From Protoeuglena noctilucae (taxonomy: Eukaryota), in the NCBI GenBank assembly GCA_958009085.1, contig OY253689.1, positions 434,001 through 477,166 of the forward strand: DNA of 43,166 bases, written 5' to 3'. The position numbers and the translations under genes are program-made. Positions 8,092 through 40,933 of this stretch are shown piece by piece. The notes beneath the pieces are model-generated. The model worked only from the letters and a program-made list of their open reading frames with translations, was not told where the DNA came from and ran no database searches. The number at the start of each line of letters is the position of its first letter. Positions within the stretch are counted from its first letter, which is position 1.

Positions 8092-11000
8092 TCACATGGG
8101 CAGCAGGTCCTCCCCCAGCGTCCAATCCTCCTCCTCCCCCTTCCCCCGCCCCCTCCGCTCCCCGTCCCCCTCCTCCTGCACCTTCACCCCCACGTTTACT
8201 GACACGGGCGCCAGGGGCTCCTCTCCCCTCGCCTTGCCCCTCTTGCCCGGCCCCGACTGCGCCTGCTCAGCTGCGTCTGCCTGCGCCTGGGCACGCTGGG
8301 CCTTGGCCAGCTTGTCTGCGATTGACGGGGGGGTGTGTGCGAGGGTAAGATGGCGAGCGAGTGGGGTGGGGGAGAGGTGGGGCTTGGCGATGTCGGGATG
8401 TCTGCAGTTAGTACCCTTAATAACAGCACTTCCACGCTTGTCATTGCGTATTGAGCCTTATGTTATCCAACAGCCCCACACACACACCCAATCCTCTCTC
8501 ACCCGCGTACTTTGCCTCGTCGTTGGTGAACCCCAATTCTCTCCCCAGATCCACCAGATACCGCAAACATTCCACATTATCCGCGTGTCTGGCGTGGATG
8601 GCCTGGTAACGGCGATAGGCGCCGGGGAGGTCGCCGGAGCGACTGGGGGGGGGTATAGGGGGGGAGGGGTGTTGGTAGATGTGATATGGGAGAGGGAGAG
8701 ATACAATTATCGTCAATTACTGGCACGAGCGTACATATGTCATCTACTCTCGCATTCCCATCCACTCATACCCCCACCCCACACACCCCACCCCTCTCTC
8801 ACCGAATGCACGAGGCCGCCATCAGCTCCCACTCACTCACACACACCACCACACCCACTCCACACCCACATCATTCTCTCACCGGATGCACGACGCGGCC
8901 ATGAGTTATCACTCACACCCACTGTCGCATCTCTCACCGAATGCACGAGGCCGCCATCAGCTCCCACTTGGCCTCCGCCGGCTGCAGCTGCGCAAGGATT
9001 TCGAAGAACGGCAGCGCGTCCGCGTAGGCGTTGTTCTTGACGTAGTAGACCCCCAGCCACACCGCCACGTCCATCGACGCGGGGAACACGCGGTAGGCGT
9101 CCTGAATGGGGGGAGAGGGATGGGTGATGATGGTGGGGTTACATGATCAAATGACTGTGGCAACACACTCATGGCACGTGGTGGGCGTCCTGGGAAAACA
9201 CAGCGATGGGATTATGATTATAATTGTGTTGGTGTTGGGTTTATAAAGGGTGTATTGTCGTGCGGTAACACTCGTCGTTGTGCCATACACACGCACAGTG
9301 CTCTCCCCTTCCCCTCTCATTGGCATATGCACGTCCACACACCCCCACATCCACCCACTCACCAGGAACATCCTCAGTGCCTTCCCCTCGTCCTGCTGCG
9401 CTGCGTGGATGCCCCCCAGCTTGACCATCAGAGAGGGATCGGCACCCAGGAACATCTGGGCAGACGCCTGCTCCAGCCACTGCGGATGAGAGATGGGAGT
9501 AAGGTGTATATTGAGAATGGTTATAGCAAGTGATGGTCGCCCAGAGGGATCGGCACCCAGGAACAAGGGATGGGTCTCAAGTGACACGGTGGGTTGAGGG
9601 GGTGTAGAGAGTAGAGTGGGACCGCGAGAGCGTGGCTGACAGTGAGGGGGGTGTACACAGAGTAGTGGGGTGAGACAGAGCGAACCCCAACACTGCACCT
9701 GCAACCCACACACGCACCCCCACCCCTCCCTCACAACACCCCCACACATGCACCCCCCCCCCACACCCCACCCCACACCCCACCCCCCTTGCCTTGACGC
9801 ACGACCGCACCCCCTGCCTCCTCCTCTCCCCTTCGAACTGCGTCAGCTCATAGCATAAAGCGATCTGCACGTGCACGTCCGGCGCGTCCGGCATCAGCAG
9901 GGCGAGCTTCTTGAAGCGGCCCATGGCCTCGCGGACGCGGTCGCTGCGCCACTTGTGTTCAAGTGATGTCCAGTCGATGGCCGCGGGGTCCAGCTGGGGA
10001 GGGAGAGAGGGGGGTAAGATTGAGGGGTGGTAACAAGTGAGGCAAAGGCAATGGTAGCTGTATAGGTCTGTCACCCCACCCACCCCACCCCTTGTGCACC
10101 GCCCCATCTCACATCCATCGCATCCCCACCCACCATGCACATCTCCCTCTCTCCCATTATCCCTCACCTCCCCCCCGCTGGACAGGTCCCTCAGCGCCAG
10201 TTTCCTGGCCACCAGCCCCGCGTTGTAGAGGGCATCGGCACAGTCGGCCTCCACCTCCAGCGCACGCTCGTACTGACTGAGAGTGGGGAGAGAAGGGGAT
10301 GTGTTGATGTCATTGTCTGCCACCTCCAGCGCACGCTCGTACTGGCTGGGGGGGGGGGGGGGGAGAGTGATGAAGGAAATGTGTTGCTATGCTTCTCATC
10401 CATGCTTACCGCAGCGCCTCCTCCAGCTCCCTCATTCACCACACACAACAACAAACACAGCCACCATTTATCACCCCATCTCTCCCCTCACCGCAGTGCC
10501 TCCTTCAGCTCCCCTCACACACTACACACAACACCTCCCCTCATACACACAACACATCACCCATCCCTACCCCCTCCCTCACCGCAGCGCCTCCTCCAGC
10601 TCCCCCCCCGCGGCCATCACGTTCCCCCTCGCCACCAGCGCCTGGGCGTTGTAGGTGTCAGCCGCCAGTGCCAGATCGGCGTTTCGCCTGGCAGCGTCCA
10701 AATCGCCCTCCATGAAAGCAATGGAAGACAAGGAGCCAGCCGCACGGGCGCGGAGGTCCTGGGGGGGAGAGCGGGATGGGGGGTGTTCAGTGAATGGGAG
10801 GTTGTGATGCGAAGATGTGACACTTTCTGAATGCAATTGAAGACAAAGAGCCGGCAGCGCGGGCGCGGAGGTCCTGGGGGGGGGAGAGGGGGGTAAGGGC
10901 GGTGATGTGGGTGAGTGAGTGAGTGAGTGAGTGAGTGAGTGAGTGAGTGAGTGAGTGAGTGAGTGAGTGAGTGAGTGAGTGAGTGAGTGAGTGAGTGAGT

Positions 11001-12156
11001 GAGTGAGTGAGTGAGTGAGTGAGTGAGTGAGTGAGTGAGTGAGTGAGTGAGTGAGTGAGTGAGTGAGTGAGTGAGTGAGTGAGTGAGTGGGTAAGTGAGT
11101 GAGTGAGTGAGTGGGTAAGTGAGTGAGGCTGGAGGTGACTTGTGGTGGGGATGCGTGTTACACTCCCGCCCATGCACACCCATCCACATCACCACCCATC
11201 ACTCGCCTTGTCCTTCCTCTCGAAGCTCTTGAGTATCTCCACCGCCCCCGCAAAGTCCCTCCCCCCCAGCAGCGCCTCCGCCTTGCACAGCTCCACCTCC
11301 CCCGCAAGCCGCGCCATCCCCATCTCCCGCAGCTGCCCCGCCGCCCACTCGAACCCCGCAGCGCGCGTGGGGCCGAGCGCGGGCGCCAGCACCCTCGCCG
11401 CACGCAGCACGGTGGCAGAGACCGCCATGCGCCTGCGCACCAACTCTTCACGCAACGAGTCGACGGCGTCTGGGTCAAAGGCCGTCTCCTCGCTCTCCTC
11501 GTCCAATGCAACGTCCACGGGGTCCAGGCCCTGGGGGGGAGGGATAAGGGGGTGGGTTGATGTGGGTGGGGGTGGGGGTGACATGAGTGGTGAAATTGGG
11601 GTGACATGCGACCCGCGAATGTGTATGTTTGTACATGTGCATATGTGCACATGTGCATGCATGTGTGTGTATAAGCGTGTCTGTGCACCATGCATCTATC
11701 ACTCTCCCCCCTCATCCCCACTCCCCCCATCTCACCCTGAGCAGCATCTGGAAGGCCGCCTTCATGCGCTCCTTGTCCCCCGCCGCGTACGCGCACACCA
11801 CCAGGTTGAACCCCGCTACGTGACTGGGGGCGTGCTCCATGGCCTGCTCGAACTGCTGCAGAGCGTCGCCCATGTGACCCGCACGCACGAACGCCAGCGC
11901 GATGTTTCGCTGCACCTGCCCCCGCAGCTCCTTGGAGGTGTTGGGGAGCTGGTCGACGGCCATGCGCCACATCTGGGGTGGGAGAGGGGGAGAGGGGTGC
12001 GGGTGTGTGTGTGTGTGTGTGTGTTGGGGAGCAAGGGGATAGTGGTTGTACATGATCAAGAGAAGTAGAGACGCTATGGCGACCTTAATTTGACACAATG
12101 CATTCGTCACACATCACCCATATCCTCTCGCATTGCGAAGTGCACCTATCACACAT

Positions 12157-12212
<56 letters not shown>

Positions 12213-13554
12213 ATGCACCCCATCTCCTCGCCTTGATGGCCTTGGCGTACTCCCGCTGCTCAAAGAGCGCCCATCACACATCATACACCATGCATCCCCA
12301 TCTCGCCTTGATGGCCTTCACATGATCGGAACATGCATTATGCACTTAGCTCCCCCCCCTTTCCCATCTCGCCTTGATGGCCTTGGCATACTCCTGCTGC
12401 TCGAAGTGCACGTTCCCCATGTTGATGCGCACGCGGGCGGGGTGCTGGAAGGCCTTGCCCTCCCTTAGCATCTGCGTGTACACCGACAGCGCCTCCCCCA
12501 GCAGGCCGTTGCGGTGCAGGCAGTCACCCAAGTGGAACTGCACCGCGAATGTCAGGTCCGTGTTCTGCATCGCCTCCGCTAGGCCCTTCTCCTGGGGGGG
12601 TAATGGGGTGGGGTGAGGTGGGGGCGACTTGCGATGTGAGCGGGGCAAGGGTATGAGGGGGGAGGGGGGTGCGGTGGGTGCGTTGCGGTTAATCAGTCTC
12701 CACACAGCACCTAGGAACTGTAAACTAACCACCCTGTCCAAGCACTGCACACACCCATCCCCCCTCACCTCTAAGAACCGCACCAGCGCCCTCTCCCTCT
12801 TCACCGCCTCCTTCGCCTTGTCGAGCGCCCCAGCCAGATTGCCCTGCCCCGCCAATGCAGCGCTCTCCTCGAGTGCCTCGTTTGCCGCCAGCTCCATGTC
12901 ACGCGCACGGGCCTCGGCGCTCCTCTCGATGCGGGGGGCGCCCACGCCGCCGCGAGCGCCTGGGGGTTGGGGGGGTGGGGGGGGTGGGTAGGGGTGCGGC
13001 GGTGGTGGGGGCGGTGGTGCGAGGGCTGGACTAGCCACTGTTGCTTGGCTGAGCCGGTCAACGCGAGAAAAGGCTAGGCCAATCCAAGTGTGCACCCTGG
13101 TGATGTGCCCACCTACCCCCTCCATCCCTCACCGAGTGCCATGGGGTCGAACGCCGCCCTGCCGCCCGGTGCCGCGAGTGCCCCCGTGGCGGGGGGGCGG
13201 CTGGTGTACCCAGCGCCGCGGTTGGACGTCATCGGACGGCCGCCCCCGAGACCGCCTGACCCCGTCACGTCCGCATGCCTGGCCATGGCGCTGGGCGGAG
13301 GGATGAAGCCGCCGCCCGGCTGCACGCGGGGGGCGCCCGCGGCGGTGCCCAGAGGCGGGCCGCGCTTGCCGGCGAACGCCGTGGCGCCGGGGTCCGGGGA
13401 GGGCGTCGTGGCGTCGTACCCCGCGTAGAGGTCCTCGTCCCTCTGCGAAAACGAAACGAAACAAGCGGGAGTTTGCAGCGCATTTATTTCTGCAACGAAC
13501 GGCGACGCGCGCGGAGGATGCGACACTGCGGGGACTCGCCGTGGTGCCTGCCAT
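8092..13554 (-). CDS. IFT88: Intraflagellar transport protein 88 (TPR protein), about 13 exons
   Basis: MAGTT|RDEDLYAGYD, RPMTSNRGAG, RVRINMGNVHFEQQEYAKAIK|MWRMAVDQ, KWELMAASC, HADNVECLRYLV and C-terminal DWTLGEDLLPM* are collinear with Chlamydomonas IFT88 as I remember it. Confidence 0.95.
10911..11126. repeat. (GAGT)n tetranucleotide microsatellite, about 50 units, inside an IFT88 intron
   Basis: Directly visible, with a few GGGT/AAGT variants at the right end. Confidence 0.97.
12159..12211. repeat. (CA)n microsatellite in an IFT88 intron
   Basis: Directly visible. A shorter (GT)n lies at ~12003-12024 in the same intron. Confidence 0.95.
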
Positions 13555-14837: not shown

Positions 14838-17800
14838 ATGAGCAAGACGCACCCGGGACACCCCACGCGGTCGGGCGCGCCCAGTCGCGCCGAGGACCTC
14901 GAAGCAGGGCTGAAGGCGGAGCAGCAGAGGCGCCAGGCGAGGGACGCGCGGGTCTCGCATCGATCCCCCTGCGCTGACGGCCCGCTGCGTCCCCCCGGAT
15001 CGTTCGTGCGATTGCGACACTGCATATGCGTCCCATATCCGCAGGCCATGTGGCTCCGCCTCGGCAAATGGCTCGTCGTCGTCTCCCTGGTGTGTCCCGC
15101 GCTCGCCCTCCTCTTTGTGTATCCGACCCCGACTCTCGCGTTTGCTCTTCTCTGCCTACCGCTCTTTCACCCCTCTGCCCCCTCTTGCCTGCCCAGGTCG
15201 GCGTGGCTGGCTTCGCCTTTGCCACCGCCATCCTCAGCACGGGGCTCTACGGCCCAGGTGACAGTCCCGAAGTAACATGACCATTTCAATCATATATTAC
15301 ATCATCTCTGTCGTTCGCTATACCATAACACTCCCCACCCCCCTCCCCTCTCCCCCAGTCAAGATCGCCCATGACGAGAACCACCGCCCCCCCGTCCTGA
15401 TCGACGACTACGAGGAGGCGTGGTGCGAGCTGGACATGTTCAGCATCCCCTACGCATTCGAGCAAGTCACCTCGATTCCCAACCAGTGCTGCAACCTCCA
15501 GGGACAAACCTGGGACATCAAGTACGACTGCTGCGACATGTACGTCAACGTGTGGCCCGCCTACAACGAGACGGACTTCGCCAACTACCTCGGGTACACC
15601 TCCATCCGCAAATTCAACTGCAGCCGGCAGCCCACGACCTTCGTCGAGGTCCCAAGCAACTACGCCCCCGTACCGCAGCCCACGGGGACGTTCACCTACA
15701 ACGGAACCTCCATCAACCCCCAATCCCTCCCGCCCCTCGCCCCCGCCAACGCCACCCCGCGGTCCACCGTCCCCGTCGATCCCCTGGGCACCCCCACGCC
15801 GCCGCAGGGCACCCGCGCAGCCACGGGGCCGGGGGGTGGCGGTGGTCCCGCACCCACCACGGCGGCCGGCGCACCGCAGCCCGGCGCCCCGCAACCCGGC
15901 ACCCCTCACCCGGCCACGCCCATGGGTGGAGCGGGCACGCCCGCCCCCGGGGCCCTGCCCCCAAGCACCGCTGCGCCCGGCGCCCCTCACCCGGCCACAC
16001 CCGCCCCAGGGCCTCAGACGCCCGGGCCGCACCCCCTGCCCACGCCCGCTCCCACCGCCCGGCGCATGCTTCGTGGCAATTCCGAGAACGAGAATCCCGA
16101 TACCCCCGGTCGCTCCCTTCGCTTCCTCCCGTCCCAGGACGCGGGTCAGTGCACGGCCGGCCACCCCTGCGCGTGCACCGAGTGCGTGTTTGGGTGGGTG
16201 ACGGCCACGGGCGCCTTCCAGGGCGACTGCGTGACGTGCACCAAGGATGTCGCCTACGCGACGCGGTGAGAAGGGAAATGAATGGAGATGTGGCTGCAGT
16301 ACACCATGCGACAGCAGTCACGCTTCCATCTCACCCATACGCTACTGACAGGGTCTCAGGGTCAGTGTCCTTCCCTGTCCATACCATCACCCCCATGAGA
16401 TGCGCCGTCATCAGATGCACCATGCATTTCAGACACTACTCACACACCCAGTGCCATCACCCCCCCGCAGCCGCGAGTGTCGACGTCGTCCCAGGTCCAG
16501 CCGGCCTGCAACGCCGCGACCGACACGTGCACGTGTGGTGCGTGCGTCTACACAGACACCTACGACCCCGTCACGGGCAACTACGCGGGCAAGCAGCTGT
16601 CGTGTCAGGCGTGCACGCGCGTGGCGGACGTGTTATTCCAGGAGAACAGCCAGGACCTGGCGGCGCTCGATGCGGGTGAGGGGGAGGGGGGTGGTGGTAT
16701 GTGATGGGTGGGGCCAGAGGAGCAGGGGTGTGAGGGTGACTGCTGGCATGGGTGATGCGGGTGAGGGGTGCGGTCGTATGGCAGTTGATGTGGGTGAGGA
16801 GGGAGAGCGATTGCCATTTAGCAAGTCCGGCTATCTCACACGTCACGCACCCAGTCACAGTATACTGACCACTCAGTATACTATGACTAGTCTCTCATCC
16901 CCCTTTCCCCCCCAGTGTGCTCTGGCCTCCCCGGCGCCAACTGCGCCTGCGAGTGGTGCGACGACTGGGGCGGCCAGGACGGGGACGTGCGGTGCGGCCA
17001 CTGCTACGCGGCAGCCACTCCCGCCTCCGCCCCCGGCCCCGCCCCTGCGCTCTGCTCCGTCGATCAGCCGTGCTTCTGCTCCAAGTGCGAGGCCGTGGTG
17101 GTGCGGCCGGGGGCGTCGGGGACGTACCTGAAGTGCGACAAGCGATACTGCACCACGGCGTCGCTCGTGGGGGACCCCAACGCACCCACGGGGTTCGTGG
17201 TGAGAGCAGGGGGGAGACAGGAGACATGTGCATGGCGAAGGGGCCCTTGCGCGGTCCGGTCGAGTGTTGATGCGGGCGCTGCGATGGCTGCGGATGTGAC
17301 AGATGACACGCCCCGACTGCCCCTGCTCTCGCGTAACCCGCCTCTTGCACCATGCTGTGTTACAAGCGCACCGTCACCTGACATCGCTTGCACCATGCTG
17401 TGTCCACGCACCGTCACCTGACCTCGCATATCTCCCTCCTCCCCCCTTCCTCAGAGCACGGAGCTGCACACCGGCTTCCGCACCATGCTCCCCTGGCGCG
17501 TGCGCACCACCAAGGACTCCCCCGGCCTCGAGTACCTCCTCCCCTTCGACTACGCCAACTTCACGTACGTGTCGTCCAGCGACGGCAACCCCTGCCTGCC
17601 CAGCGGCCTGCTCTCCTACGGGTGGCACCAGCCCACCTACGCGGTGAGGGGGGGGGGATGCGACACAGTGGTGTGTGGGTGTGGGTGTGGGTGCTTGGCT
17701 GCAAGGTGAGGGAACGCGACTTGTGTGGTGTGTGTGTGTGCTTGGCTGCATGGAGACTCGATTGCACACGCTTTGTCTCATGTCAGTGAGGGTCTAGTCT

Positions 17801-20800
17801 CGTTCACCTCGCCTCGCCATGTACCAACGCACCATCAACTCAGACCTTGTCGCATCGCACCTCGTCTCATCCCAACCAACTGACCATACCATCTCACCAG
17901 TCTCACGTCCCCTTATGTAACAACCCAGAAAGACTCTCTTGGCCGATTAACCGACACGCTGGAGTGGGTGGAGTGGACGGAGCAGTCCTTCAAGGCACGC
18001 GGCCTCGACACGCCCCTCTCCGGCCAGCGATTCAAATGCATGATCAGCCGCAAGTGGCTCGACCAGGACCCGGGGGCGTGTGGCATCAGCTACGAGCAGC
18101 CCAGGCGAGAGGGTATGGGGTGCACACATGCGACATAACAGACACCGCAGTCAACCGCAGCCCCCACAGCTGCCCATACTTCCTAGCGCCATCTCAACCG
18201 TCCCTGCATCCACTGCCTCTGCCAAACCCCCGCCTCTCTACCCGTCACCCTGCCATGACCATTCAAATCTCCCGTACCCCCCCAGGTGCGGCAACATCAG
18301 CGGCCAGGTGGAGCCGTCCCTGTGGTCGGCGTCCCATCGCGGTGACTACATGGTCGAGGAGTGCGCCCACTACAACCAGTTCCCCGACTGCGGCATTATC
18401 CCCCACGAGTCCGCATACTGGGACAAGGCGAGACATGCGGGGATGGATGCATTCTCGCAGATGGCATGCTTGCCGCTGATAGTACCTATACGCATGGCCG
18501 GCAATCTCACTTATGGACTCTCGCTGATGGCTTTGCGTGCATGTGCGGTTGCCTGCGATCAATGCTCATGGTCGACCATGCTTTGGTTGGCTCTACTGCT
18601 GTTCATTGTACAGTAGTTGAGAGTGCAACGACGGACCCCCCCCCCCCTACCCCACCCACCCAGGTCAAGCCCGCCAGCGCCATGTCCGGTTGGCACAGGC
18701 ACGTCCGCTCCATCGATTCGATCCTCTACTCCGCCGTGGCCATGTACGTGCTGGGGGGGGTCAGCCTGATGTGCGCGTACCTGGTGCATAGGTACTGGGT
18801 CGAGAGAGAAGTGGGGTTCGAGGTGAGGGGGGAATGGGTCGAGATGGTTGGGTTACGTATTCCCGCTCCTATTCCCACCTAGAGCAGCATTGCAGCAGTG
18901 GGTGGTTCATGCCCTCATCCGCCCCTCACCCACCCCGCCCCACTGTCCCACTGTGTGAATGCTTATTCACAGCATGAGCATGATCGGTGCGTCACCATCT
19001 CCCTTCAACTCCGCCCCCCCCCCCCCCCAGCACACGCTGGTGAGCGGCCCCCGTGCCCGTCACGCCAACGTGGTGCCCAAGCTGCAGGAGGCGAAGCACG
19101 AGGAGGTGTTTGATATTAAAGAGGGGTACCTGGTGAGTGATTGCAATGCATGGAGTGGATGGCAATGTGCATGAGTAGGGATGATGTGTGTTTGACATCA
19201 GAGAGGGGTACCTGGTCAGTGGACGTGATGGGTGGGGAAAGGGGATAGAAAGAGTGATGTGTGCAGAGACTCGGTTGGAAGATCGTTGTCCCCACCGTCA
19301 CCCCCTCTCCCTCTCAACCCCCCTCACTCCCTCCCTCCTCCCCCCCTTAGTCGTACCTGGATGGCTGGGAGGAGTCGGTGCAGATAGTGAATCTGACGAG
19401 CATGGACGTGGACGTGCGCATGATCGACAACGACGTGGGGGACGCGGATGACGACGAGAGGGAAGTCAGCTGCGGGGTCGTGGGGGCGGGGGGGACCATT
19501 GATGCCAAGCTAGCACAGGTGAGGGGGGGATGTCATGCATTGTGGGTGTTAAGCAAGCACAGGTGAGGGGGGGGGGGGATGTAATGCACTATGGATGCCA
19601 AGCTAGCGCAGGTGGGGGGGGGGGGGCTATGGGAGGTGAATGGCAAGTTACTGCAGGTGAAAGAGACAGTAACGACCATACAGGGTAGGGACGACCATGC
19701 ATGCGCAATCCCTCCTCTTCTCTCTTCCCTACCCTCGCATCCCCGGATCCATCCAACCCCTCCCATGCCACCCTCTTTCCTCTCCCACCACTGCCCCACC
19801 ACCCGTTTCCACCACCCTCCCCACCACTTTCCCAACCACCTCCCCCCCCCCCCCCCCAGGGCGTCTGGATCCGCGCCCGCACCGTGGACGGCACCCGCGC
19901 GACGCTCTTCTTAACCGAGGCATTCGCGTACACCTCCACCTACGCGCGCATACTGGGTAGAGACCGGCTGCCCCTCCCCTGCGAGCCGCGCACGGCCTGG
20001 ATGTGCCCGCTTGTGCACTACGATACCTACCGAGTCATCGTGTCCATCCACCAGCTGCAGCCGGGGCAGAGGTGACGAGTTAGATGAATAAGTCGAATGG
20101 GGATTAGTAAGTGGAATGGGGATTGTAGTTGTTTATGTTCATCGTATGCGCCTCTTCTGCCCCCCCCATCTCCTTGCAGCCCCGCCCCTCACCCACCACA
20201 CTCATTGTCAACATCGCCGCTGCACCCCCCGCCACTCCCATTACCCTCTTCTCCCCACCATAACACATAACACCTTCCCCTTTCCCCCCGCAGCCTCACC
20301 CCCGCGAACGTGGACACGGTGGGTCAGATCCACGCCATGCGCAAGGACAAGAGAGTGCGTGCGCTGATCGCTAAGGCACGCGCGGTGGGGGGCATGGCAC
20401 TCGCGGGCAAGGCAGCCAAGGACTACAGGCACAAGGTGGAGGCGGCGAAGGTTACCGCGACCAAGGCGCCCAGCAGCAAGGGTGAGGGGAGGGGGGGCGG
20501 TGGGACAGGGGAGGTGGGTGATGTTCAGTGACGGTGGATGCAGCGACGGTGGGATGACCGGCGATGCCCGATGCGCCCTCTCATGTCGCTGTTGCTCTCT
20601 TCTCCTTTTCTCTCGTCTCCAACACACCTCCCCCTTCCTTCTGAACCCTATGCACCTCCTCCACCCTCCCCTTCCCTCTCATCTCCCCCACCCTCGTCCC
20701 CCCACCCTCCCCTTCCTCTCATATCCCCCACTCTCCCCCTCCCCTCATATCCCCCCACTCCTCCTCCTCCACCCCTTCTCTCATCTCCCCCACACGCAGC

Positions 20801-25750: not shown

Positions 25751-27110
25751 ATGAGCAAGAAGAAGGGGCTATCGCTGGAGGTGCTGGATCGGCACGCTGC
25801 TGCAATGGCCGCTCGCACCTCGCGCGGTCGATGTCCGCCCTCCCGGCCCAGCCAAGCAATTCATTGCCGCGCATTGGATCGCAGGAGAAGCGAGACAAGA
25901 TCCTAGAGGTGTTCCACGAGTCGAAGGAGGTCTTCATCCTCAAGGTGCGCGAGGGTCGGGTCCTCACGCTGCGCGCGGCGTGTGGCTGGCCGCGCCTCCT
26001 GCGGCCCAGACCCGGAGCGCTCCGCCGTGTCCTCTGCGCAGGAGGTCGAGAAGAAGGCGGCGGCGAAGGGCGTCGTGCTCCAGAGCGTGAAGGACGTCCT
26101 CCAGACCCTCGTGGATGACGACCTGGTTCACCAAGAGAAGGCACGACCCCGGGCCGCGTGGGCAGCGGTGCGGGACCGGCCGAGACTTGTCACAGGACTG
26201 TGTCTTTGTCTCTCCGCAGATCGGCACCACCAACTTCTTCTGGAGTTTCCCCAGCGAGGCGGGCGTGAAGCTACAGCAGGAGCTGGGGCGACTGCAGGCG
26301 CGAGGGGAGGAGCTGCGGGCGCAGGCGGAGCGGGCAAGAGAGAGCATACGCGCTGAGGTGCGAGCGGGGCAGTGCGGGGGTCCCTAGCACGGTCCCTGCT
26401 GGTCTGGTAGCAGGCTGTTGGGCCCAGCGTGACCGTACCATAACGGTTCACACATTCCATCATGCGTGCCGTGCCTGGCTGTTGTCGCAGGGACAGGGGA
26501 AGGAGGACTCGGAGGAGCGGAGGAGACTGGTACAGGTGTGGTGCAGCCACGGCTGCCAGCTAGATGCCGCACCCATGCGTGCGTTGACAAGCCCGCGATC
26601 CCCACAGTGCCGTGCCCAATTTCGACACCAACACCCTTTCTCCCGCCTTCATCGCAGGACCTGGAGACCCTCCGCGCCGAGCACGCCTCCCTGCGCGCGC
26701 AGCTGCAGGCGTTGGCGGAGAGTGACCCCGAGGCCGTGGATGCGATGCGTGAGGCGACGCGGGTGGCTAGGGACGCGGCCAATCGGTGGACCGACAACAT
26801 ATGGTGCCTGGCCAGCTGGGTGAGGGGTCGGTGGGTCATGAAGTGCGTGGTTAATGGATTGATTGGTTGCCTGGCCAGCTGGGTGAGGGGGCGGGTCATG
26901 AATTGCATGGTTAGTGGAATGAGTGGTTGCATGAGTGGTTGCTTAGCTGCGTTGAGGGGCAGTTAGGGTACAGGTATCGCGGAGAGAGTCACACTCTGCC
27001 TTTGCTGTGTTATCCCGCAGTGCAAGCGCAAGTTCCAGGGCCGGGAGAAGGAGCTGGAGAAGTTCTTCGAGCAGAATGGCATCACGGATGCCCTCGATTA
27101 CGTGGAATGA
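25751..27110 (+). CDS. MND1: Meiotic nuclear division protein 1; exons 25751-25780, 25885-25944, 26042-26140, 26220-26357, 26491-26535, 26658-26819, 27021-27110
   Basis: MSKKKGLSLEEKRDKILEVFHESKEVFILKEVEK..KGVVLQSVKDVLQTLVDDDLVHQEKIGTTNFFWSFPS..AANRWTDNIW..LDYVE* matches MND1 throughout. Confidence 0.96.
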
Positions 27111-27129
27111 GATGCCATGCTGACTGTGG

Positions 27130-27178: not shown

Positions 27179-27179
<1 letters not shown>

Positions 27180-27390: not shown

Positions 27391-30300
27391 CTAGCTGTCC
27401 CCCGCGCCCCACATGGCCGCCACCACCACCGAGTCGTCCTCGCCCCCCTCCCAGTCCCCATGATCCAAGTCTCTCTCCCCCTCCCCCTCCTCCTCCCCCT
27501 CTTTGTCGTCGTCCACCCCACCCTCGGGCATCAGGGCCGGGAGTGACGTCGACGCGGCATGGGACGCCTTGAGACGCTCGTACTCCCGCGCCAGGCGCTG
27601 TGAGGGCAGAGGGCGATGCATGGTGCGTATGGGCGCGAGGCCATACAAAACCAAACGCGCCCATCACTACCGCGTCCCATACCACCCCACACACCACAAC
27701 TGCCCACTGCCCCCCTCCCCCTCACCTCCACGAATCAATCCACCTCCTCCATCTACCCACTGCCCACTGCACTGCTTGCTGAGCACTGCACTGCTAAGTG
27801 CCCACTCCCACCCCCTCCCCCCCTCACCTCCACGAATCGGTCCACGTCCTCCCTCTGCCCCCCCAGCGCCGCCGCTGCCGTCACGTACACGTGGCCGTAC
27901 CCCGCCCGGTGCGCCCCGTACCCCTCCAGCCGCACCCCGCCCACCGTGGCGTCCTTGCCCACAACCACGCGAGCCCCGGACACGCGGCGGAGGAAGAGGC
28001 GGGACCCCAGCATCGTGGCTGAGGCGGCCTGCGGGTGAACAGAGCGAGCATCCCGGGGCTATCGGCTCAGCGCATGGCACGCGGCTGCCGGGGTGCGTGT
28101 TGGGGATGAGCCCTGCTAGGCCTGTGGCACCCTAGCCCGTTTGCATGGAAGCTCGGTAGTCGCCTAGATCACAACAGTGCGAGGGCGGCTGCGTTATCTC
28201 CGACTCGCCTGCATGACGTCCAGCGTCATGGCCACGGATATGGGGTTGCGTGGCGTCACCAGCACACGCTCCCCCAGGTGCTCGGCCACCGCCTGCGGAC
28301 AACGACGCAACACGGCATGCGTCAGAGTCAAGAGCCATTAATCAGTCCCCATCTGTTCCTCACACCCCCTTCATCTCACCTGCACCCGCTCTGTGCATCA
28401 CACTCCCCACCCTCACCCCCCCCTCACCCCCACCCTCACCTGCATCTTCTCCGCCAAATAGTCGTAGAGCTCTGCCCGGCTCTGCCGCACCGCCTCCCAC
28501 CCCGCGCGCCCCCAGTGCAGCAGCGTCATGGCCAAATCCAGCACCGGAGACATGCCCGCGCGGCCAGGCCACAGCTGCTTCACCGCCTCCACAGCACCTG
28601 GGGGGGGGAGGGCAGGGAGCGCGTGTGCTGGCATGCACTTGCCTAGCCCCCTGAGGTGCTTCCCTCTCCGTCACTCATCACTCCGACCCACGCACAGTAC
28701 CCGTGCAAAGCACTCAACTCGCAGCACCCCGGATCCCTCGCGCCGCCCAACATCCCCACTTATCACCCGCACAATGCTCTCGCACCCCAGCCTACCCCAA
28801 CCCATCCCACCCCACCACCCCTCGCCTTCCTGTCCCTCGAAGTCGCACACCAGCGCCCCCCCCACGGGAACCATGAAGTTTTTATCAGTGCTCTGAACAC
28901 CAGCCGTGACCGTGCCGCGTCGCGCGGCGGTCCCCAGCTGCTGGCACAGCCACGCGCTCTGCACGCCGTATGCGTGGTTGACCACGTGCATGGTGCCCAG
29001 GCGGCAACACATCCTGGCCACCTGCAGAGAAAGGGCAGGGGCGGGCACACGTAACGCACCACCACCGCAACTGCGCACGGGGGTCGCCGCGTGCAGGACT
29101 TGGGAGGTCCTATCTCGAGCAGTGCACGCAGCAAACACAATTAGACCCCTCCCTCACCTCCACCACCAGGTCGCATCCCCGGGGAGCGAAGCAGCTCGTC
29201 GTGGTCACCACGCAAAGCACGTTGTCGACGCTGGGGGGCGAGAGCGAAGCGGAAGGGGATGAGTCAAAGACAGAACAGCTGAGGGAGTGCTGGAGTCTTA
29301 GCCATGCCAGCTTAGCAGCCGCGCACCCGAGGTCGGCGATGGCCTTCTCGATCCCTGCCAGGTCCGTCACCAGCTCATCGCCCTGCAGAGAGGGGGAGGG
29401 GTCGTGGGAGCGTCACGACTGACACGGCACGCGAGTGTCATCGTCAAAGGCCGAGACACAACATTCAGCAACAACCACTTAGGCCATCAGCCACTAAGTT
29501 ATAAGCCAGCCAGCCGAATCTGTGTGTGTGTCATTCCCTCCTCTTTAAGTGTCCCTCGCCTGCATGACGGGCTCCACGACGCATACCTCGAGCCCCGCGC
29601 TGAGTATGGCCTTGAGGCACGTCTTCTGGTCGATGCGGCTCCACACCACGAACCGCGCCCCCGGCCGCATGGGCCGCAGCGCCAGCAGCACCATCATCAT
29701 GGCCACGCCCGTGGCGGCAGGCAGCACCACCGACGACGCCACCTCACGCATCCCAGCTTCACTGCGGGCGGGGGGGGCGCACGGGCACGGCTGGTGACCA
29801 ACGGTGCTTGCCCTGCCTCATTGCAGACGCTTGCCGCGCCAAGACCGTCGCAGCCGCCCAGCCATCGGCTCTTCACAGTCGACCCCACTGCCGTCGACAC
29901 CACTAAGCACACAGCACCCCAGGCAGCTCCCCCACACTCCTGCCCCATCCGCGCGCCCAGGCGCGCACCGCAGCGCGTCGGTGGCCAGCAGCGACGCGAC
30001 CTTGAGCAGCAGCGACGAACCCGCCGCCTTGGGCTGCTCCGCTGCCACGTCGCCGCTGCGGCCGATGCCGTGGGCCAGACCCAGCGAACGCGCCCGCACC
30101 AGCGGGCACGCGATGCGGCCCTCGCGCTCCCCGACCCCGGCGTTTCCTGTCGCGAAGGGGAGAGCGAGGTGAGTTGGACACATGCGATCCAGCGAAATCG
30201 TCGCCGCAAGCCGCGGTGGCGACGGCGCACGATTGGCCATCCCCCTGTGGCCTTGGGTCGTGGGACGGGCTCCCGTCCAGGCACCTGGGAAATTGTTCGA

Positions 30301-34160: not shown

Positions 34161-37100
34161 ATGTCCGCGCGCATCTGGGCCTCCCCGGGCTCCGCAGCCG
34201 CGCTGTCACAACTATCGTTTGCCGCTAGTCGTCGACACACGGCCCTCATCCTCCGCGCCTCCTCGGAGCGGCGGAGGGGCGACGTGGCTGCACCTGGCCA
34301 GGCACGGGGACAGGCAGGCAACGAGGGGGGATCGGGCGAGGGGAGGAGCGGCGGCCGGCAGCGAGATCCGGGGAGCAAGCGAGGTACGCAGAGACAACCG
34401 GGGCGCTGCCGCTGATACGCTGCCTTGCATCGATTGCCATGGCACACTGGGCTGCGTGCCACCCTTCCCGTGCAGGGCCGGGGGGGGTCTCTCTTGCGGG
34501 CGGTAACGGCGCTCCTACCCCTTCAGATGCGTTTGGAGCATTTGAGGATGAAGAGGTGGGTGTAAGGGGGTTGACAGGCTGGCTGGGGGTCGCGTGCAAT
34601 TGCGGCGTATGGGCTGTCCTGTTACCTGTGCCTCCCATCACCTGTGCCTGCACGGGTCGATGGTGCGTGTAAAAGTGGTCTACGCATGTGTTGCAGGTCT
34701 CACGCTTCCTGTCCGGCGCGCTTGATGCGAGGGGCGGTGTGGGGCGGGGGCGCGGGGGCCGGGGCATGAGGGGGCGGGGCGGGGGCAGAGGGGCCAAGGG
34801 CGGGCGCGGCGGTCGCAGTGGCGGTGGCGGTGGCGGCGGTGGTGGCGGGCAGCGGGAGGCGCGTCGCGGTGGCAGGGGTGGCGGTGAGAGAGGAGACGCG
34901 GGCGTCGCGAAGAGGGGAGGGAGAGGGATGAGTGGGCGTGAAGAGGTGAAAGAGGAGGGGGGGAGGGAAAGTGAGGAGGATGAGGTGGAGGGGACGGGTG
35001 GAGAAGAGGAGACGGTGGTGGAGCAAGGCCGGGGGGTGGATCACGACGCGGGCGATGATGCGATCGCGGGAGAGAGGGAGGGTGAGGTAGCAGTGGAGGC
35101 ATCGAGCGTGGGTGCAGTGGCGACGGGCGAGGTGCCGGGCAGCATGCCGGGCATGGATGGCGCGCCCCCTGCCCCTCTGAGCGTGGAGGACGAGTCGCTT
35201 GTGTCGCTGGGGTGGGCGGGGGTGTGCCGGCAGGTGGCGTTCTTCTGCCAGACTCCGAGGGGGTTCCTGGGGGCGCTGGGGGGCGGGGTGCGGGTGGGGA
35301 GGACGCGGGAGGAGAGCGAGGCACTGCTGGGGGAGACACGGTGAGGGGGAGAGGGAGGGAGTGCGGCATTGTTAGGGAATACTAGTTGTGCAATATGCAC
35401 CCCTCCTCTTGGTGAGTCTCATGACACAACTCACCGCGTCCCTTGCCCGCCCCCTCTGCGCAGAGAGGCCATGGCAATGATGGCAGCAGTCAACAGCGCC
35501 CCCCTCCCCCTCCACGCCCTGTCCTCTGTGCTTGACGTGGCGCCGGCATTGCGGGCGGCGCGTGCGGGGCGCGTCTTCACGCCGCGGCAGGCGCAGGGGG
35601 TGGCAGACACAGTGGCGGCACTGGCGGAGGTGGCGGGGGCGGTGATGGCCGCGAGAGGGGCGCTGGCGAGGGGGGCGGAGGTGGCGGGGGTGGCCCTTGG
35701 GGACCAAGAGGCGAGGGCGCGATGCGTGGCATGACGCATGAATCGATGGTGGAATGGCATGGGTCATGGGTTGTGCATCGCATGCTGTATGTACGGGGTG
35801 GTTAAGCGGTAGCAGCACGCAGTTGGTAATCTCTCCCTCCACACCCCACGCCCACCCATTCCTCCCTCCCCAGGTCGCGTCCCTCTCTCGCCTCGCCTCG
35901 TCTCTGTCGCGGTGCGTGTCGGGGGGCCGCGTGGCGGATGGGGCGGACCCATCCCTGCCGACGGTGCGGGGGGAGCGGAGGGCCAACGCAGAGGAGCTGA
36001 GGAGGAAGGCGACAGAGATGGCACGCGCACTGTTCGCCACAGGTGAGAGGATGCGGTTGATGAAGGGATGTGTTGTTTGGCACCAGTGGAAGCATGTGTT
36101 GAGGTGGCGTGATGATGGGGGGGAGCGATGCGGTGGTGACGGCCACGTCATGTCGCAGACTGTATGGCCCAGTTCCCTCGCTGCATCATGAAACGCTCTC
36201 CTCCCTTCCACATTATACACAGTATGCTATCAAAGCCTTCGTTGCCCCCCTCTTTACTCCCCCCAGGTGCCCTGGAGCGCCCCCAGGTGGTGCAGCGGGA
36301 GGGGCGGTCGTGCCTGGCCGTGCGCAGTGGGCGCATGGGGGAGCTGTCCAGGGGGGCGGTGGTGCTGGGGACGTCGAAATCGGGGCAGACGCTGTTCGCG
36401 GAGCCGCCGGAGCTGGTGGAGAGGAACAACAGGGAGCAGGGTGAGTGGAGATGGCATGCGGTGCGGATGAGCGATGGCACCGACGACGGAGGACAGGTGC
36501 TGTTACGTGCTGTGGCGCTATCAGATATTGTCACTTCATGCCTCACTTATGCTCTCTGCCCATGCTCTGTGCCCATCCTGCCACCCGATGCCTCACTTAC
36601 GCTCTGTGCCCATCCATCATTCCAGACCTGTCGTCGATGGAGGCGGAGATCGAGGAGAGGGTGCTGAGGGGAATGACGCGCGACGTGGACACGCACGCGG
36701 ACCTGGTCGTGAGACGCGGGGTGCGGGGGATGCATTTGTCCATCGCGGTCACCTTGGCTGCAGGGCAGGATGAAGTGCAGCTGCCTCGTCCCACTGCACC
36801 ACCCCTGTGCACCACCCTTGCGCACCATGCCCCACTGTGCCACCCCACTGCGCCCCATGCCTCACTCCTAACCCACTCTCCCCTCTCCCCCAGCTCCGCG
36901 CCGTGTCTCTCGCTTCCCACGTGGACATGGCCCAGGCGCGCGCCCGCCACGCCGCGTGGATGCGGTCCTCGGACGTGCGACTGTGCGGTGCGGGGGAGGC
37001 GCCGCTGCACCTGCCCGGGTGCCGGCACCCCGTCATGATGGAGGCGGGGCTGCCACCGCTGCCGCAGGCGAGGGGGAGAGAGAGGATCGCAGCACATCGC

Positions 37101-39740
37101 AAGCACCCTGGCTCACCAACAGACGCGGTCAGCTCCCAGCACGCATGCTCGGCGCTTCCCCTCATTCTCACACGCGCGTGATGTCTGCTCCCCCAGGCAC
37201 CCCCCTCTCTGCTGATGGAATTCGAGTCGGATTACCTGGGACCCGTGGGGACGCTCGGTGGCCCCAAGGGGGCGGATGGGGAGGGGCGGGAGGGTGCGGC
37301 AGGGGGGCAGTGGGACGAGGCGCGGATGCCGAGGCCGGTCGACTGGGTGGTGCCGGAGGGGACGCGGTGAGTGAGTGGAGATGACTGCATGGTGGGACGG
37401 GTGGCGCGACGGAGCGGGGTGCGCTGGTCGCCGCCTGCATGAGGGCCGCTTGCAACACTAAACCACCCCCCAACCCCTGCTTGTCTTCTGCAGCGTCGTC
37501 GCCATCACGGGTCCCAACACGGGCGGCAAGACGGCCTCCCTCCTCGCCCTGGGCCTGGCGTCCCTCATGGCGCGCGCGGGGCTCTTCCTGCCCTGCTCCG
37601 CCAGCATGGGCCTGCCCCGCGTGCCGTGGTTCGACGCGGTGCTCGCGGACATCGGAGACTCCCAGTCCCTCGAGCAGAGCCTCTCCACCTTCTCCGGACA
37701 CGTGCGCAGGTGAGCACACCATGCGACGTGACGTGTGACACGTGTGACTGCGCGCGCTTCCTTGCTGAGTCCATGACCATGCACCCGCGTGTCTCTCTGG
37801 TGACTGCGTGCGCTTCCATGCTGCTTTGCATGACCGTGCACCCGCGTGTCTTTCCGACCCAGGTGCTCCCGCATCCTCTCCCGCGCCACTCCCCAGTCCC
37901 TGGTGCTGCTGGACGAGGTGGGGTCGGGCACGGACCCAGACGAGGGGGCAGGTGAGAGGGGGTGCTGTGGATGTAAGAGTCAGAAGTGGGTCTGCCTTGT
38001 CGCAGTCTGTCTGTAGGGGTCGCGAGTGGGTCTACTTTGTCGCATCTGTGATGCAACCACGCATCGCGTTCCCCCCGCAGCCCTGGCTTGCAGCATCCTC
38101 CTCCACCTCCGCGACACGGCCGCCCTCACCGTGGCCACCACGCACCACGCAGAGACCAAGGCCATGGCTGGCAGCGAGGCGAGTGGCAGGGGCAGGTCGT
38201 GTTGTCACCCATGCACCTGCGACTGCGTCTGGCCCAACCATGCTATGCTCTGTCTCCCCAGCCCGGCTTCGCCCGTGCCAGCGTAGGCTTCGACACGCAG
38301 ACCCTGCGCCCCGCCTACGCGCTGCTGTGGGGCACGGCGGGCGCCAGCAATGCCCTCGACATCGCACAGGCGCTGGGATTCGACCCGGCGGTCGTGGAGG
38401 TGAGCGGTGGAACGGACACACGCTCGTGTGGATGTGAGCGGTGGGGGTGGGCGTTGGACTGGACACACGCTCGTAGGGATGTGAGCGGGGGGCAAGTGTT
38501 AACACCGTGGCATCGGGATACGACAACCCCTCCCACTCTATCGCTGCAAGACCGTGGCATGTCGACGACAACCCGCTTTCGCTCCTCCCCCTTCAGGAGG
38601 CGCGGGCGGTGGCGGCGGGCGTGGGGGTGCGCGCGCTGGCAATGGGCAGCTCTGGCGCGAGGGGGGGGCTGGCTGCTGAGGTGGCGGAGGCGCAGCAAGA
38701 GGCAGAGGCGGCCAGGGGGCGGCTGTCGGCACTGCACGCGGCGTTGGATGAGACGCGGGCGCGGAGGGCGGAGGTGGAGGGGTGGGACGCGGGGGCGGCG
38801 GCGGAGAGCGTGGCGGGGGAGGTGGGGGAGGAGGCGGCACGGTGGGTGGCAGAGGCAGAGGTGAGCGGCGGGGAGTGGTGGCGCGGCAGGCCGTAGCGCG
38901 TATGGCTGCGTCCCGTGTAGCTGCGGTGTGCTGGTGAGTAATCACGCATGCAGGTATGCGTGTGCATGGCCGTGCCCGTCACTGCCCCTATCGTCGCCCA
39001 CACCGCAGCGGGGCCAGGTGTCCGTGGATGCCGCGATAAGCGCATTGGCGGCGATGGCGGGGGAAGCACGGGAGCGGGTGGCAGCCGCGGCGCCAGAGTG
39101 GGCGAGGGCGGGAGGGGACGGCGTGGATGGCGCGGGCGAGGCGGGCGGCGGGAGGGAGGGGTGGCGCCCGTCGGTCGGGCAGCGGGTGCTCGTGGCGGGT
39201 GCTGCGGGCGCCGAGGGGGTGGTGCGCGCGGTGGGCGACGCGTGGGCGGTGGTGGCGATGGGTGCCGTGGAGACGCGGGTGGGCAAGGAGCGTCTGCGGC
39301 CGTGGGACCCCCAGGGGGCAGAGGGGGCGCGGGGCGGGGGGGGAGCGGGGGGAGGGCAGGCGCGGGGGAAGGGGCCGGAGCGCCTGGCCGCCGCGGCAGA
39401 GGCAGTCAAGCAGCGGTGGAAGTGGGCGGGGAGGGGGCGGGCGGGCGGGGCGGTGGCACTGGCGGGGGCGGGCGGCGGGGGCGGCGGGGGCGGCCCGGCG
39501 ATCGCCACGTCCCGCAACACGGTGGACGTGCGCGGCATGGGCGCCGAGGAGGCCGCGGAGGAGGCGGCGCGCGCCGTGGGGGCGGCGGGGGCGGGCGGCA
39601 CGGTGTTCATCGTGCATGGGGTGGGGACGGGGCGCGTGCGTGACGCGGTGCGGGAGCTGCTGGCGAGGGACGCTCGCGTGGCCAGCGTGGCGTACGAGGA
39701 GGGCAGCCAGGGGGGCTGCTCCGTGGTGACCCTGGCGTGA
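34161..39740 (+). CDS. MUTS2: Plastid MutS2 with C-terminal Smr domain, about 15 exons; start codon inferred
   Basis: [17 protein letters not shown]-terminus, [11 protein letters not shown], Walker [57 protein letters not shown], and Smr motifs [17 protein letters not shown] at 39738-39740. Confidence 0.93.
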
Positions 39741-39815
39741 GGGTCGCTCTATGGGACGAGTAAGCGTGGGTGGCGCACCGCAGTGTTTGCCGGTTTTCAT
39801 CTAGTCCGTCGTTTT

Positions 39816-40933
39816 TCAAAAGTCCACGTGCAGCCTCACTCGCGCGATGTCCTTCACCCCGATCGACACCACCTCCTCCCTCTGCCGCCGCGTCAGCCCC
39901 GCCCGCCCCTTGCCGCGGTTGGCACGCACGTCCGCCAGGTGCCAGCGGGTGCACTCCGCGTCCCACGACACGACGCTCAGCACCCTGGAGTCCGCGCGCC
40001 CCTCCCCGTCCACGTAATCCACCCGCATGGGCAGCTCCCTGCGCAGCCACGAGAAGTGCCGTCCGTCCGTCACCCCACTGCCCCCTCACCGCTCTTGTTG
40101 GTCACCTCACGCCCCACACGCGCCTCGCCCTCACCGGAACCTCTCCAGGTCCCTCGGCACCTCCACCTCCCTCTCCGCCCCCGGGGACGACACCTCCACC
40201 TCCAGCGACCCCGCCGCCTCCTCCCCCAGCAGCGCCGACAGCCGCTGCGACAGCTCGCGGGAGAAACGCTCGATGTCGTCCAGAGAAGGCGACCCGTACT
40301 TGTCCGCCATACTCTCCAGCCGAATGTCCAGGCGGGACTGGGGGGAGGGGTCACGCATGCGTCACGCTAGTGCTGCGCAGGGCTGGGTCCCCAAGTGCGC
40401 CTGGGCCATCAGAGACTCGCCTGCTGCGGCACGGCGCGGAACGAGTAGAGTCTCAGGTGGTCGGCGCCGTCCTCGGCCAGGGCATCCCGGGCGGCACGGA
40501 GGGCGGACTCCGCCCAAGGCAGGCCCCCCGTCTCGACGCTGCGGGCCGCGGCCTCCTCGACCTCCTCGGCGACCTCCAGCTCCGCCGAGTCCTCGTCGTC
40601 GCCGTCGCCATCGGCGGGGCTGGCACCGCCCGCGGCCTGCTGGGAGGCGGGGACGGAGGTCGGGTGCACAGGCGCCCAGGCGTGGCGGGCTGGCCGCGAT
40701 GGAGCAGCAGCCGACGAGCGAGGGCTTACCCACTGCTCGCCATCTGCCGGCTGCGGCGTGCGCGGCCGCTGCTTGCCGGCCGCTGCGCACACGGAGCACG
40801 GCCGCCGAAGGGCCGGCCAGCGCGGCAGGTCGGGAACCCGCTGCGAGGGGCCGGGACCTCTCCCCCGTGACGGCAACACGGACGATGCGACCCGCGCCAT
40901 GTCGGCGAGCGATGCACAGCGCGCACCGGACAT
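39816..40933 (-). CDS. RimP/DUF150-like ribosome maturation factor, organellar; start at 40933 or 40900
   Basis: LYSFRAVP..RLDIRLE...DKYGSPSLDDIERFSR..LEVEVSSPGAER.V.VPRDLERF..LPMRV.Y..W.LADVR.N..VRLHVDF* matches the plant/algal RimP-like family. Confidence 0.88.

Follow-up and report, generated by a model that had tools for sequence, protein, structure and literature searches.

We confirmed that GC donors are frequent in Protoeuglena noctilucae, both in the window (the whole analysed stretch of 43,166 nucleotides; contig OY253689.1, positions 434,001 to 477,166) and in a wider sample of the genome. The introns concerned are most likely ordinary U2-type introns in which position +2 drifts to C under G+C-biased substitution where pairing is strong on the exon side as well as on the intron side.

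The original prediction had placed 17 GC donors among about 88 introns of the window. Read directly, the sequence has GC at +1 and +2 on the predicted strand at 17/17 coordinates. An exonic AG precedes 16 of them (the exception, 13539, follows CG) and 13 read AG|GCGAG, in agreement with the claim that almost all follow an exonic AG and most share this motif. A gene model trained on other contigs only and then applied to the window called 89 introns (70 GT, 18 GC and 1 GA), recovering 17/17 GC donors and 14 of the 15 RNA-supported coding junctions. The 18th GC call, 12231, was rejected as a duplicated exon end that is skipped in RNA; without it the GC share is 17/88, or 19% (95% CI 12–29%), which reproduces the predicted count. 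The introns are given below with donor, gene and support.

9480..9792, minus strand: GC-AG intron, AAG|GCAAG, TPR-protein gene 8092-13554; model, 6.9 nats, stop on read-through; outside the RNA-compared stretch
10759..11206, minus strand: GC-AG intron, AAG|GCGAGT, TPR-protein gene 8092-13554; model, and an X3 loose end joining 11206 to 10758
11973..12372, minus strand: GC-AG intron, AAG|GCGAGA (AIK|MWR), TPR-protein gene 8092-13554; model donor and X4 loose end
13443..13539, minus strand: GC-AG intron, ACG|GCGAGT, TPR-protein gene 8092-13554 (its first coding intron); model, 8.9 nats
14937..15044, plus strand: GC-AG intron, CAG|GCGAG, unnamed membrane-protein gene 14838-24101; model only, 8.1 nats
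18105..18285, plus strand: GC-AG intron, CAG|GCGAGA, unnamed membrane-protein gene 14838-24101; model, 9.5 nats
18428..18663, plus strand: GC-AG intron, AAG|GCGAGA, unnamed membrane-protein gene 14838-24101; model, 12.9 nats, in-frame GT absent within 30 bases
21857..22136, plus strand: GC-AG intron, CAG|GCAAGC, unnamed membrane-protein gene 14838-24101; model, 7.4 nats
24856..24956, minus strand: GC-AG intron, CAG|GCGAGT, Dpy-30 gene (Pfam Dpy-30); RNA joint in X1, X3 and X4
26141..26219, plus strand: GC-AG intron, AAG|GCACGA (HQEK|IGTT), atypical context, Mnd1 gene; model, 3.4 nats, in-frame GT alternative at 26168
28029..28208, minus strand: GC-AG intron, CAG|GCGAGT, SepSecS gene 27391-30411 (Pfam SepSecS); RNA joint
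28598..28825, minus strand: GC-AG intron, AAG|GCGAGG, SepSecS gene 27391-30411; RNA joint
29383..29559, minus strand: GC-AG intron, CAG|GCGAGG, SepSecS gene 27391-30411; RNA joint
35711..35873, plus strand: GC-AG intron, GAG|GCGAGG, MutS-family gene 34766-39740 (Pfam MutS_V); model, 6.7 nats
37068..37196, plus strand: GC-AG intron, CAG|GCGAGG, MutS-family gene 34766-39740; model, 8.9 nats, in-frame GT absent within 30 bases
38179..38261, plus strand: GC-AG intron, GAG|GCGAGT, MutS-family gene 34766-39740; model, 10.4 nats, in-frame GT absent within 30 bases
40338..40420, minus strand: GC-AG intron, CAG|GCGAGT, gene 39816-40900; model, 9.8 nats

The gene at 8092-13554, for which Pfam gives TPR only, we take to be IFT88, as labelled before, and the gene at 39816-40900 is presumably RimP-like. 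Intron 11973..12372 contains copies of its exon end and donor, and the model split it at the copy at 12231; a (GTGA)n run lies at 10911-11089, inside intron 10759..11206. Intron 14937-15044 had been described as in frame and as the weakest call: it is in frame and also stop-free, and its retention is possible, but splicing is favoured by 8.1 nats and the lowest model score belongs to 26141.

Splicing was assessed with contigs of four marine metatranscriptome runs from one study (X1–X4), compared with positions 11120-31100, a stretch that contains 12 of the 17 GC donors and leaves five outside. Of the joints and loose ends, 15 of 45 and 20 of 34, respectively, were examined. Each of these 15 joints had a single placement and standard ends and was present in X1, X3 and X4; four were GC..AG (24956, 28208, 28825 and 29559) and 11 GT..AG. 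Two of the loose ends examined resolve to further GC junctions (11206 to 10759 in X3, 12372 to 11973 in X4). Spliced RNA, proposed earlier as a check, accordingly documents removal of GC..AG introns from transcripts by four joints and two loose ends, that is for 6 of the 12 donors in the compared stretch, the other six not being among the rows examined. At intron 13443..13539, pieces of X1 and X3 end at 13442 while their records continue, and one X2 contig reaches 13531. Run X2 had 0/15 of the joints and its contigs continue through introns (this GC intron, and one GT intron that is crossed). The share of words present beforehand was below 0.2 in X2–X4, and therefore no habitat claim rests on these runs.

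The wider census covered coding introns in 760 kb on 21 contigs (2.9% of the genome) and relied on our own gene model rather than on genome-wide RNA. With a 1% starting prior, 263 of 1553 predicted introns were GC-AG (16.9%, CI 15.1–18.9%), 1283 were GT and seven had decoy donors (GA 1, GG 6); a 15% prior gave 270/1553, and the held-out half 121/723. The predicted share of one in five fits the window, whereas one in six describes the genome sample better, and the sampled value lies outside the 1–2% that had been named as the contrary outcome. When one GT-trained matrix was used with equal priors, calls were 265 GC, 26 GG and 12 GA, and 220 of the 265 GC calls kept the exonic AG plus +4A+5G, so the GC context was not self-taught. 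Self-reinforcement of the model was ruled out by the symmetric-prior, opposite-start and held-out runs. Forbidding GC made decoys climb to 67/1504, meaning that the model then picks wrong sites, and restriction to GT lost about 2100 nats. Stop-free, in-frame introns were more common among GC than GT calls (50/263 vs 169/1283, p 0.015), suggesting that a few percent of the GC calls may be false. GC introns occurred in 146 of the 258 sampled genes, which hold about six introns each, and resembled GT introns in median length (110 vs 114), G+C, acceptor profile and rank in gene; neither class of census introns had a strong branch-point consensus, and the two classes did not differ in this motif. 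The GC share was even over contigs (12.5–26.9% in 21/21 blocks, chi2 16.8), ruling out a local or subtelomeric effect.

Both halves of the donor proved to matter. In the census, GC made up 53% of AG|GYRAG donors (229/432) and 3% elsewhere, with 2.6% (12/470) at AG| donors lacking RAG at +3..+5 and 4.8% (17/352) at BG|GYRAG donors; the exonic AG alone is therefore insufficient. The earlier interpretation offered two options, a loosened recognition of +2 or a GC-biased drift where the exon pairs strongly; it is best kept with both together, but exonic pairing must be joined by RAG at +3..+5. GC donors carry -2A in 93%, -1G in 98%, +4A in 97% and +5G in 99%, and have 6.25 U1 matches outside +2 vs 5.06 in GT donors. 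Their share climbed from 0.6% to 85% as the count of remaining U1 matches rose towards its maximum of seven (four or fewer, 3/537; five, 85/645; six, 147/331; seven, 28/33) and followed the identity of -3 and +6, as expected from U1 pairing. At MAG|GYGAG it was 59% (155/264) vs 0.52–0.71 where these words occur inside introns or between genes, and at AG|GYAAG 77% (43/56) vs 0.75–0.88. At MAG|GYGAGT, GC was present in 39/43 (91%) vs at most 0.71 at comparable neutral words (p 0.004), an excess that plain drift does not predict.

U1, U5 and U6 were canonical in their pairing regions. We found one U1 gene with the canonical 5' end AUACUUACCUG, scoring 65.9 bits, slightly below the Rfam cut-off of 69.5; the U6 ACAGAGA and U5 loop 1 are canonical as well. 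With the U1 5' end and the U6 ACAGA box, whose inspection had been recommended, both unaltered, no snRNA change explains the GC donors. A variant U1 complementary to GCGAG was rejected, the sole U1 match being canonical (Rfam, 41 of 427 candidates scored; BLAST, one), as were changed U6 or U5 pairing regions and the loss of METTL16 or SNRNP27, since METTL16-family and SNRNP27 genes are present. The introns most likely belong to the major (U2-type) class: their donors are complementary to the U1 5' end, more strongly than GT donors outside +2, U1, U5 and U6 are present, and the donors read GCRAG rather than the U12-type RTATCC. A U6atac search gave no match, nor did its control.

We propose that a donor would rest on three supports: the exon-side AG, probably served by U1 and then U5 loop 1; +2U; and the intron-side RAG at +3..+5, probably served by U1 and then the U6 ACAGA box. 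With both flanking supports present, loss of +2U would be cheap, and G+C-biased substitution in this 65% G+C genome would turn +2 to C at roughly the frequency expected where selection is absent, C being near neutral there; with either support missing, C would be purged. About 17% of major-spliceosome introns would thereby come to carry C at +2, with GT and GC presumably switching in place. A metagenome scan for orthologous GT/GC switching yielded 39 SepSecS loci, all of them distant, but none from a close relative, and in-place switching was therefore not observed. G+C content alone is insufficient because Micromonas commoda (64% G+C) has 2.7% (PMC3033335). Binding by human U1 snRNP is better with +2C than with +2A (PMC4383343), and for mammals it has been proposed that GC donors are surrounded by a stronger consensus and become fixed neutrally where the context is strong (PMC2490688); tolerance of +2C is broader here than in mammals or land plants.

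Other explanations were weighed against this drift at doubly supported donors. An artefact, with nearby GT sites as the true donors or with retained coding sequence mistaken for introns, is highly implausible: an in-frame GT lies within 30 bases of 14 of the 17 window donors, 14937-15044 can be read through and X2 contains unspliced contigs, but GC is used at the six RNA-supported junctions, which refutes the artefact there, decoys are near zero, GC introns are divisible by three in length as often as GT introns (32% vs 34%), and a possibly transcript-derived database protein identical to our U1-C model (203/203 residues) spans a GC intron. It is also improbable that the GC introns descend from introner transposons, now decayed, with a GCGAG end that co-opted the exonic AG. 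In M. pusilla, introners supply many of its GC donors. Introner families can have up to 50% GC donors (PMC9860276), and the nine SepSecS intron positions are nearly absent from the 39 loci of other eukaryotes, which have different positions in common (one of nine, a GT one, is credibly shared, by a crude aligner and with distant relatives only); many introns were therefore probably gained in the lineage. However, all-against-all BLAST of the 1553 introns gave long hits in 13 GC and 12 GT introns, nearly all from duplicated genes, plus one weak pair. Terminal inverted repeats and target-site duplications beyond AG, the latter looked for at both junctions, showed no excess over shuffled pairs, although some introner families have neither and a 2-base AG duplication is invisible to this test; the dependence on -3 and +6 fits U1 pairing instead. 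An ancient burst whose copies have decayed completely, or families scarce enough to escape a 2.9% sample, may still have contributed.

A change in spliceosomal proteins, in the RNase H-like region of Prp8 or the zinc finger of U1-C, that reduced the +2 penalty is possible though doubtful; it is compatible with the drift explanation, of which it would be the cause. In the predicted Prp8, 74 of the 1195 columns that are nearly invariant hold a different residue (6.2%, compared with a median of 0.35% among 120 homologues), about ten of them at approximately human 1783-1884, but the departures are spread along the whole protein, three homologues deviate as much, and the columns are defined by these partly redundant homologues themselves. 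The QACLK segment, which we take to be the GU cross-link site, is unaltered. In U1-C, numbered from Met1, Ser19 is replaced by Val and Arg28 by Leu; in the human structure both residues sit at the RNA backbone, but Ala substitutions at these residues leave yeast growth unaffected (PMC4383343 and work cited therein). Selection for +2C at the strongest donors, keeping the U1 duplex in a stability window for timely release, is an unlikely reading of the excess at MAG|GYGAGT and seven-match donors: GC donors have a mean predicted duplex energy of -6.4, which is within the GT range (-8.0) and would be -10.8 with T, and GT donors avoid combining both halves (218 observed vs 336 expected). Against this, numbers are small, the class was chosen after inspection, GC-biased gene conversion could produce such an excess wherever C carries no cost, and the avoidance is a general donor feature (PMC11732430) that persists with GC donors added (449 vs 528). 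A combination, in which +2C is preferred at the best donors and caps the U1 duplex genome-wide while a spliceosome altered in the Prp8 RNase H-like region or U1-C has largely stopped +2 proofreading, is similarly unlikely. If true, the 'invariant' +2U would be an adjustable third support, with neither transposon origin nor snRNA change, and the altered residues would be candidates to account for the GC-rich donors still unexplained in other plankton.

High GC-donor levels are unusual but precedented, comparable levels being known from a few other GC-rich plankton. The assumption that GC-AG introns are about 1% in most eukaryotes stands for plants and animals and fails for several GC-rich algae, published at 6–40%. 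GC-AG introns reach 39.6% in Aureococcus anophagefferens, 22.2% in Micromonas pusilla and 7.7% in Chlorella sp., GC-rich marine or green algae that likewise have a canonical U1 5' end and in which the authors call the origin an enigma (PMC3033335); introners are present in M. pusilla (PMC11282704) and Aureococcus (PMC9860276), whereas we found no repeat family in this alga. The pelagophytes Ac. anophagefferens (~14–17%) and Pelagomonas calceolata (~14%) match its level, ascribed to high G+C, but are stramenopiles with less than one intron per gene vs about six here, and the available text reports no context rule (bioRxiv 2024.10.30.620910). GC-AG plus AT-AC introns number 173/2044 in Ostreococcus tauri, 8057/114347 in Micractinium conductrix and 7090/124435 in Chlorella sorokiniana; the highest values we computed from this 121-genome survey (8.5% and 7.0%) are about half of the share here, and hinge on annotation (PMC6310983 has M. 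pusilla at 5.6% vs 22.2% in PMC3033335). Mammals also place GC donors in the strongest contexts with a compensating consensus (PMC2490688) but stay below 1%, whereas here C about equals T where both halves match and is the commoner base in the best class. The exon-side/intron-side trade-off among our GT donors (odds ratio 0.21) resembles the division of donors into one class set by pairing with U5 loop 1 and another set by pairing with U6 (PMC11732430). Frequent GC donors are shared with dinoflagellates, the group of this alga's likely host, but Symbiodiniaceae (GC/GA donors 25–74%) use GA donors and have active introners (PMC11453091), whereas in this alga GA and GG do not rise above decoy level. 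A full-text literature search, with subscription papers outside it, found no account of GC donors in pedinophytes; the main text of a pedinophyte genome preprint (10.1101/2021.10.04.463119) holds no splice-site passage, though its supplements may hold intron statistics, and 'GC-AG' and 'spliceosomal' are absent from the text of PMC12574857.

The alga is a pedinophyte with Marsupiomonadales affinity (best named Ycf4 match Marsupiomonas sp., 71%), and a mitochondrial nad5-like frame has 64 AGR vs 15 CGN codons, with AGR at Ala sites by eye. Extrapolation gives several thousand GC donors in the genome, and because one or more GC introns occur in 146 of the 258 genes sampled, gene finders assuming ~1% GC donors would mis-annotate over half of the multi-exon genes. 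The tolerance of +2C in GC-rich plankton has been an enigma (PMC3033335), confounded by introners; with a compact, intron-rich genome, one canonical U1 gene, no introners detected and a clean dose-response, P. noctilucae is a good system for measuring the worth of +2U and selection against over-strong donors.

The DNA reads GC at all 17 sites where the original prediction had placed GC donors, and the exonic AG described before them is present at 16 of 17, with AG/GCGAG at 13 of 17 (slash, exon-intron boundary). Contigs from four marine metatranscriptome runs of one study were placed on window positions 11120-31100, and 15 of 45 spliced placements (joints) and 20 of 34 overhanging ones (loose ends) were listed. 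Four of the listed joints are GC..AG and 11 are GT..AG, each reaching standard ends by one placement only, while two listed loose ends add two further GC junctions; among the placements listed, at least 6 of the 12 GC donors in this range are spliced, as had been predicted. Run X2 supplied 0 of the 15 listed joints, and its contigs lie inside both GC and GT introns, where we provisionally read them as DNA or pre-mRNA. Joints and loose ends also revealed minus-strand 5'-UTR introns with GT donors (25215-25372, 30406-30691 and approximately 13814-14143) in the genes for Dpy-30, SepSecS and a TPR protein.

A two-strand gene model that treats donors with T, C, A and G at +2 as distinct classes was self-trained on 760 kb drawn from 21 nuclear contigs; the window and the two organelle stretches were excluded. 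Applied to the window, it found each of the 17 GC donors and 14 of the 15 coding junctions with RNA support (two 5'-UTR joints were set aside because the model is coding-only). When a GC donor was disallowed, the model score fell by 3.4-13.0 nats (median 8.7; GT median 7.1). In the sample, with a 1% prior per non-T class, the census called 1283 GT, 263 GC, 6 GG and 1 GA donors, a GC share of 16.9% (CI 15.1-18.9%) of predicted, not RNA-derived, introns in 2.9% of the genome, which bore out the expected high frequency. The GC count was 270/1553 with 15% priors after five rounds (29 GA/GG decoys) and 121/723 in the other half when half the contigs were used for training; one GT matrix for all four classes at equal prior gave 265 GC, 26 GG and 12 GA. 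In-frame, stop-free calls were slightly in excess for GC (50/263 vs 169/1283 for GT). Frequent GC donors are real and genome-wide, and an artefactual origin is scarcely credible.

Introns carrying copies of the preceding exon end and donor numbered 6/89 in the window vs 16/1553 in the sample; one such copy misled the gene model, and RNA employs the first donor. These and other features of the window include:

11973-12372, exon-end/donor copy intron
8643-8937, exon-end/donor copy intron
10346-10582, exon-end/donor copy intron
19519-19859, exon-end/donor copy intron
27598-27827, exon-end/donor copy intron
10911-11089, (GTGA)n microsatellite within a minus-strand GC intron, donor-like on the plus strand
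14838-24101, 21-intron gene for a cysteine-rich membrane protein of about 1500 residues (gene model)
27391-30411, SepSecS gene with apparently lineage-specific intron positions
31298-32892, presumably a DnaJ-plus-ferredoxin-like gene
42900-43166, TTAGGG repeats, bordered on the inner side by a few TTTTAGGG and degenerate units

The window is the final 43 kb of its contig and terminates in TTAGGG repeats at a chromosome end; the genome comprises 26.3 Mb in 27 contigs with 65% G+C, and the organelles are two small AT-rich contigs. The window holds 53 copies of CCCCCAG vs 6-18 per 20-40 kb block elsewhere (the acceptor is mostly CGCAG genome-wide), and its introns seem long against a sample median of 113, both possibly a subtelomeric effect. 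The alga, Protoeuglena noctilucae, is mainly an endosymbiont of Noctiluca scintillans (PMC12574857). Plastid Ycf4 has Marsupiomonas sp. as its best named relative (71%), and a mitochondrial nad5-like frame with 64 AGR vs 15 CGN codons is consistent with the AGR-to-Ala code described in Marsupiomonadales (PMC12574857). The mitochondrial contig (63-1091, 2397-4358) also carries a reverse transcriptase/maturase frame, presumably of group II intron type, and AGR codons at Ala-like sites. Each of these two features was previously described for Marsupiomonadales (PMC12574857).

GC donors in the sample share a consensus (-2A 93%, -1G 98%, +3R 99%, +4A 97%, +5G 99%), and their share is 229/432 among AG/GYRAG donors vs 34/1114 among all others. 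It rises with the number of other U1 matches: 0.6% for four or fewer, 13% for five, 44% for six, 85% for seven. GT donors trade exon-side against intron-side halves (odds ratio 0.21), whereas GC donors require both. GC and GT introns resemble each other in length, G+C and acceptor, and in their rank within genes and spread over contigs. At +3, 90% of GT donors in the sample carry G, unlike the A-rich textbook consensus.

Inspection of the spliceosomal RNAs, as proposed for U1 and U6, found one U1 gene (5' AUACUUACCUG), a canonical U6 box (ACAGAGA) and a canonical U5 loop 1; METTL16-family and SNRNP27 genes are present, and a genome search, whose control was weak, gave no match to U6atac. We consider it probable that these introns are of U2 type and that their donors rest on three supports, presumably provided through U1, U5 and U6; +2U would be one of them and dispensable where the other two are present, +2C would then be nearly neutral, and G+C-biased substitution would fill the freed sites with C. 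In the double-match class, C:T lies close to its value for identical words in unselected DNA: 0.59 vs 0.52-0.71 with +3G, and 0.77 vs 0.75-0.88 with +3A. MAG/GYGAGT, a class picked after inspection, is GC in 39/43, above the unselected range (p 0.004). The strongest donors are nevertheless unlikely to be under selection for C. A protein change underlying wide +2 tolerance, compatible with the three-support explanation, is a somewhat doubtful possibility. Predicted Prp8 exceeds most of 120 homologues in divergence over its whole length, with a cluster near human 1783-1884 (numbering anchored at 1506-1752, approximate beyond), and U1-C is altered at positions which, in the human structure, contact the RNA backbone (PMC4383343); these predicted differences are leads, not causes.

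That GC introns are introner relics appears quite improbable, as intron families, inverted repeats and target-site duplications were not found among sampled introns. Five introns 100% identical between blocks of two contigs (C2, C16) and four near-identical introns within a C8 block are recent gene duplications. Nearly all of the nine SepSecS intron positions are missing in 39 distant eukaryote loci (the aligner was crude and made spurious calls where alignments ended), suggesting intron turnover in the lineage; an old, decayed intron burst is a possible past source. These distant loci were the comparison obtained, with no close relative, and in-place GT/GC switching was unseen. SepSecS loci of another GC-rich eukaryote (L111, L112, metagenomic) have apparent GC donors, AG/GCGCG.

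A high GC-AG level is itself already known in other plankton and algae: 39.6% in Aureococcus, 22.2% in M. pusilla and 7.7% in Chlorella sp., with which this alga shares a canonical U1 (PMC3033335), 14-17% in pelagophytes (bioRxiv 2024.10.30.620910), high shares in dinoflagellates (PMC11453091) and 6-7% in some Chlorellales (PMC6310983). The compensation rule for GC donors is likewise known in mammals (PMC2490688). No report of GC donors in pedinophytes was found in the full-text literature searched. What is new here is the lineage, the lack of detectable introners and the sharp dose-response, which makes the worth of +2U measurable.
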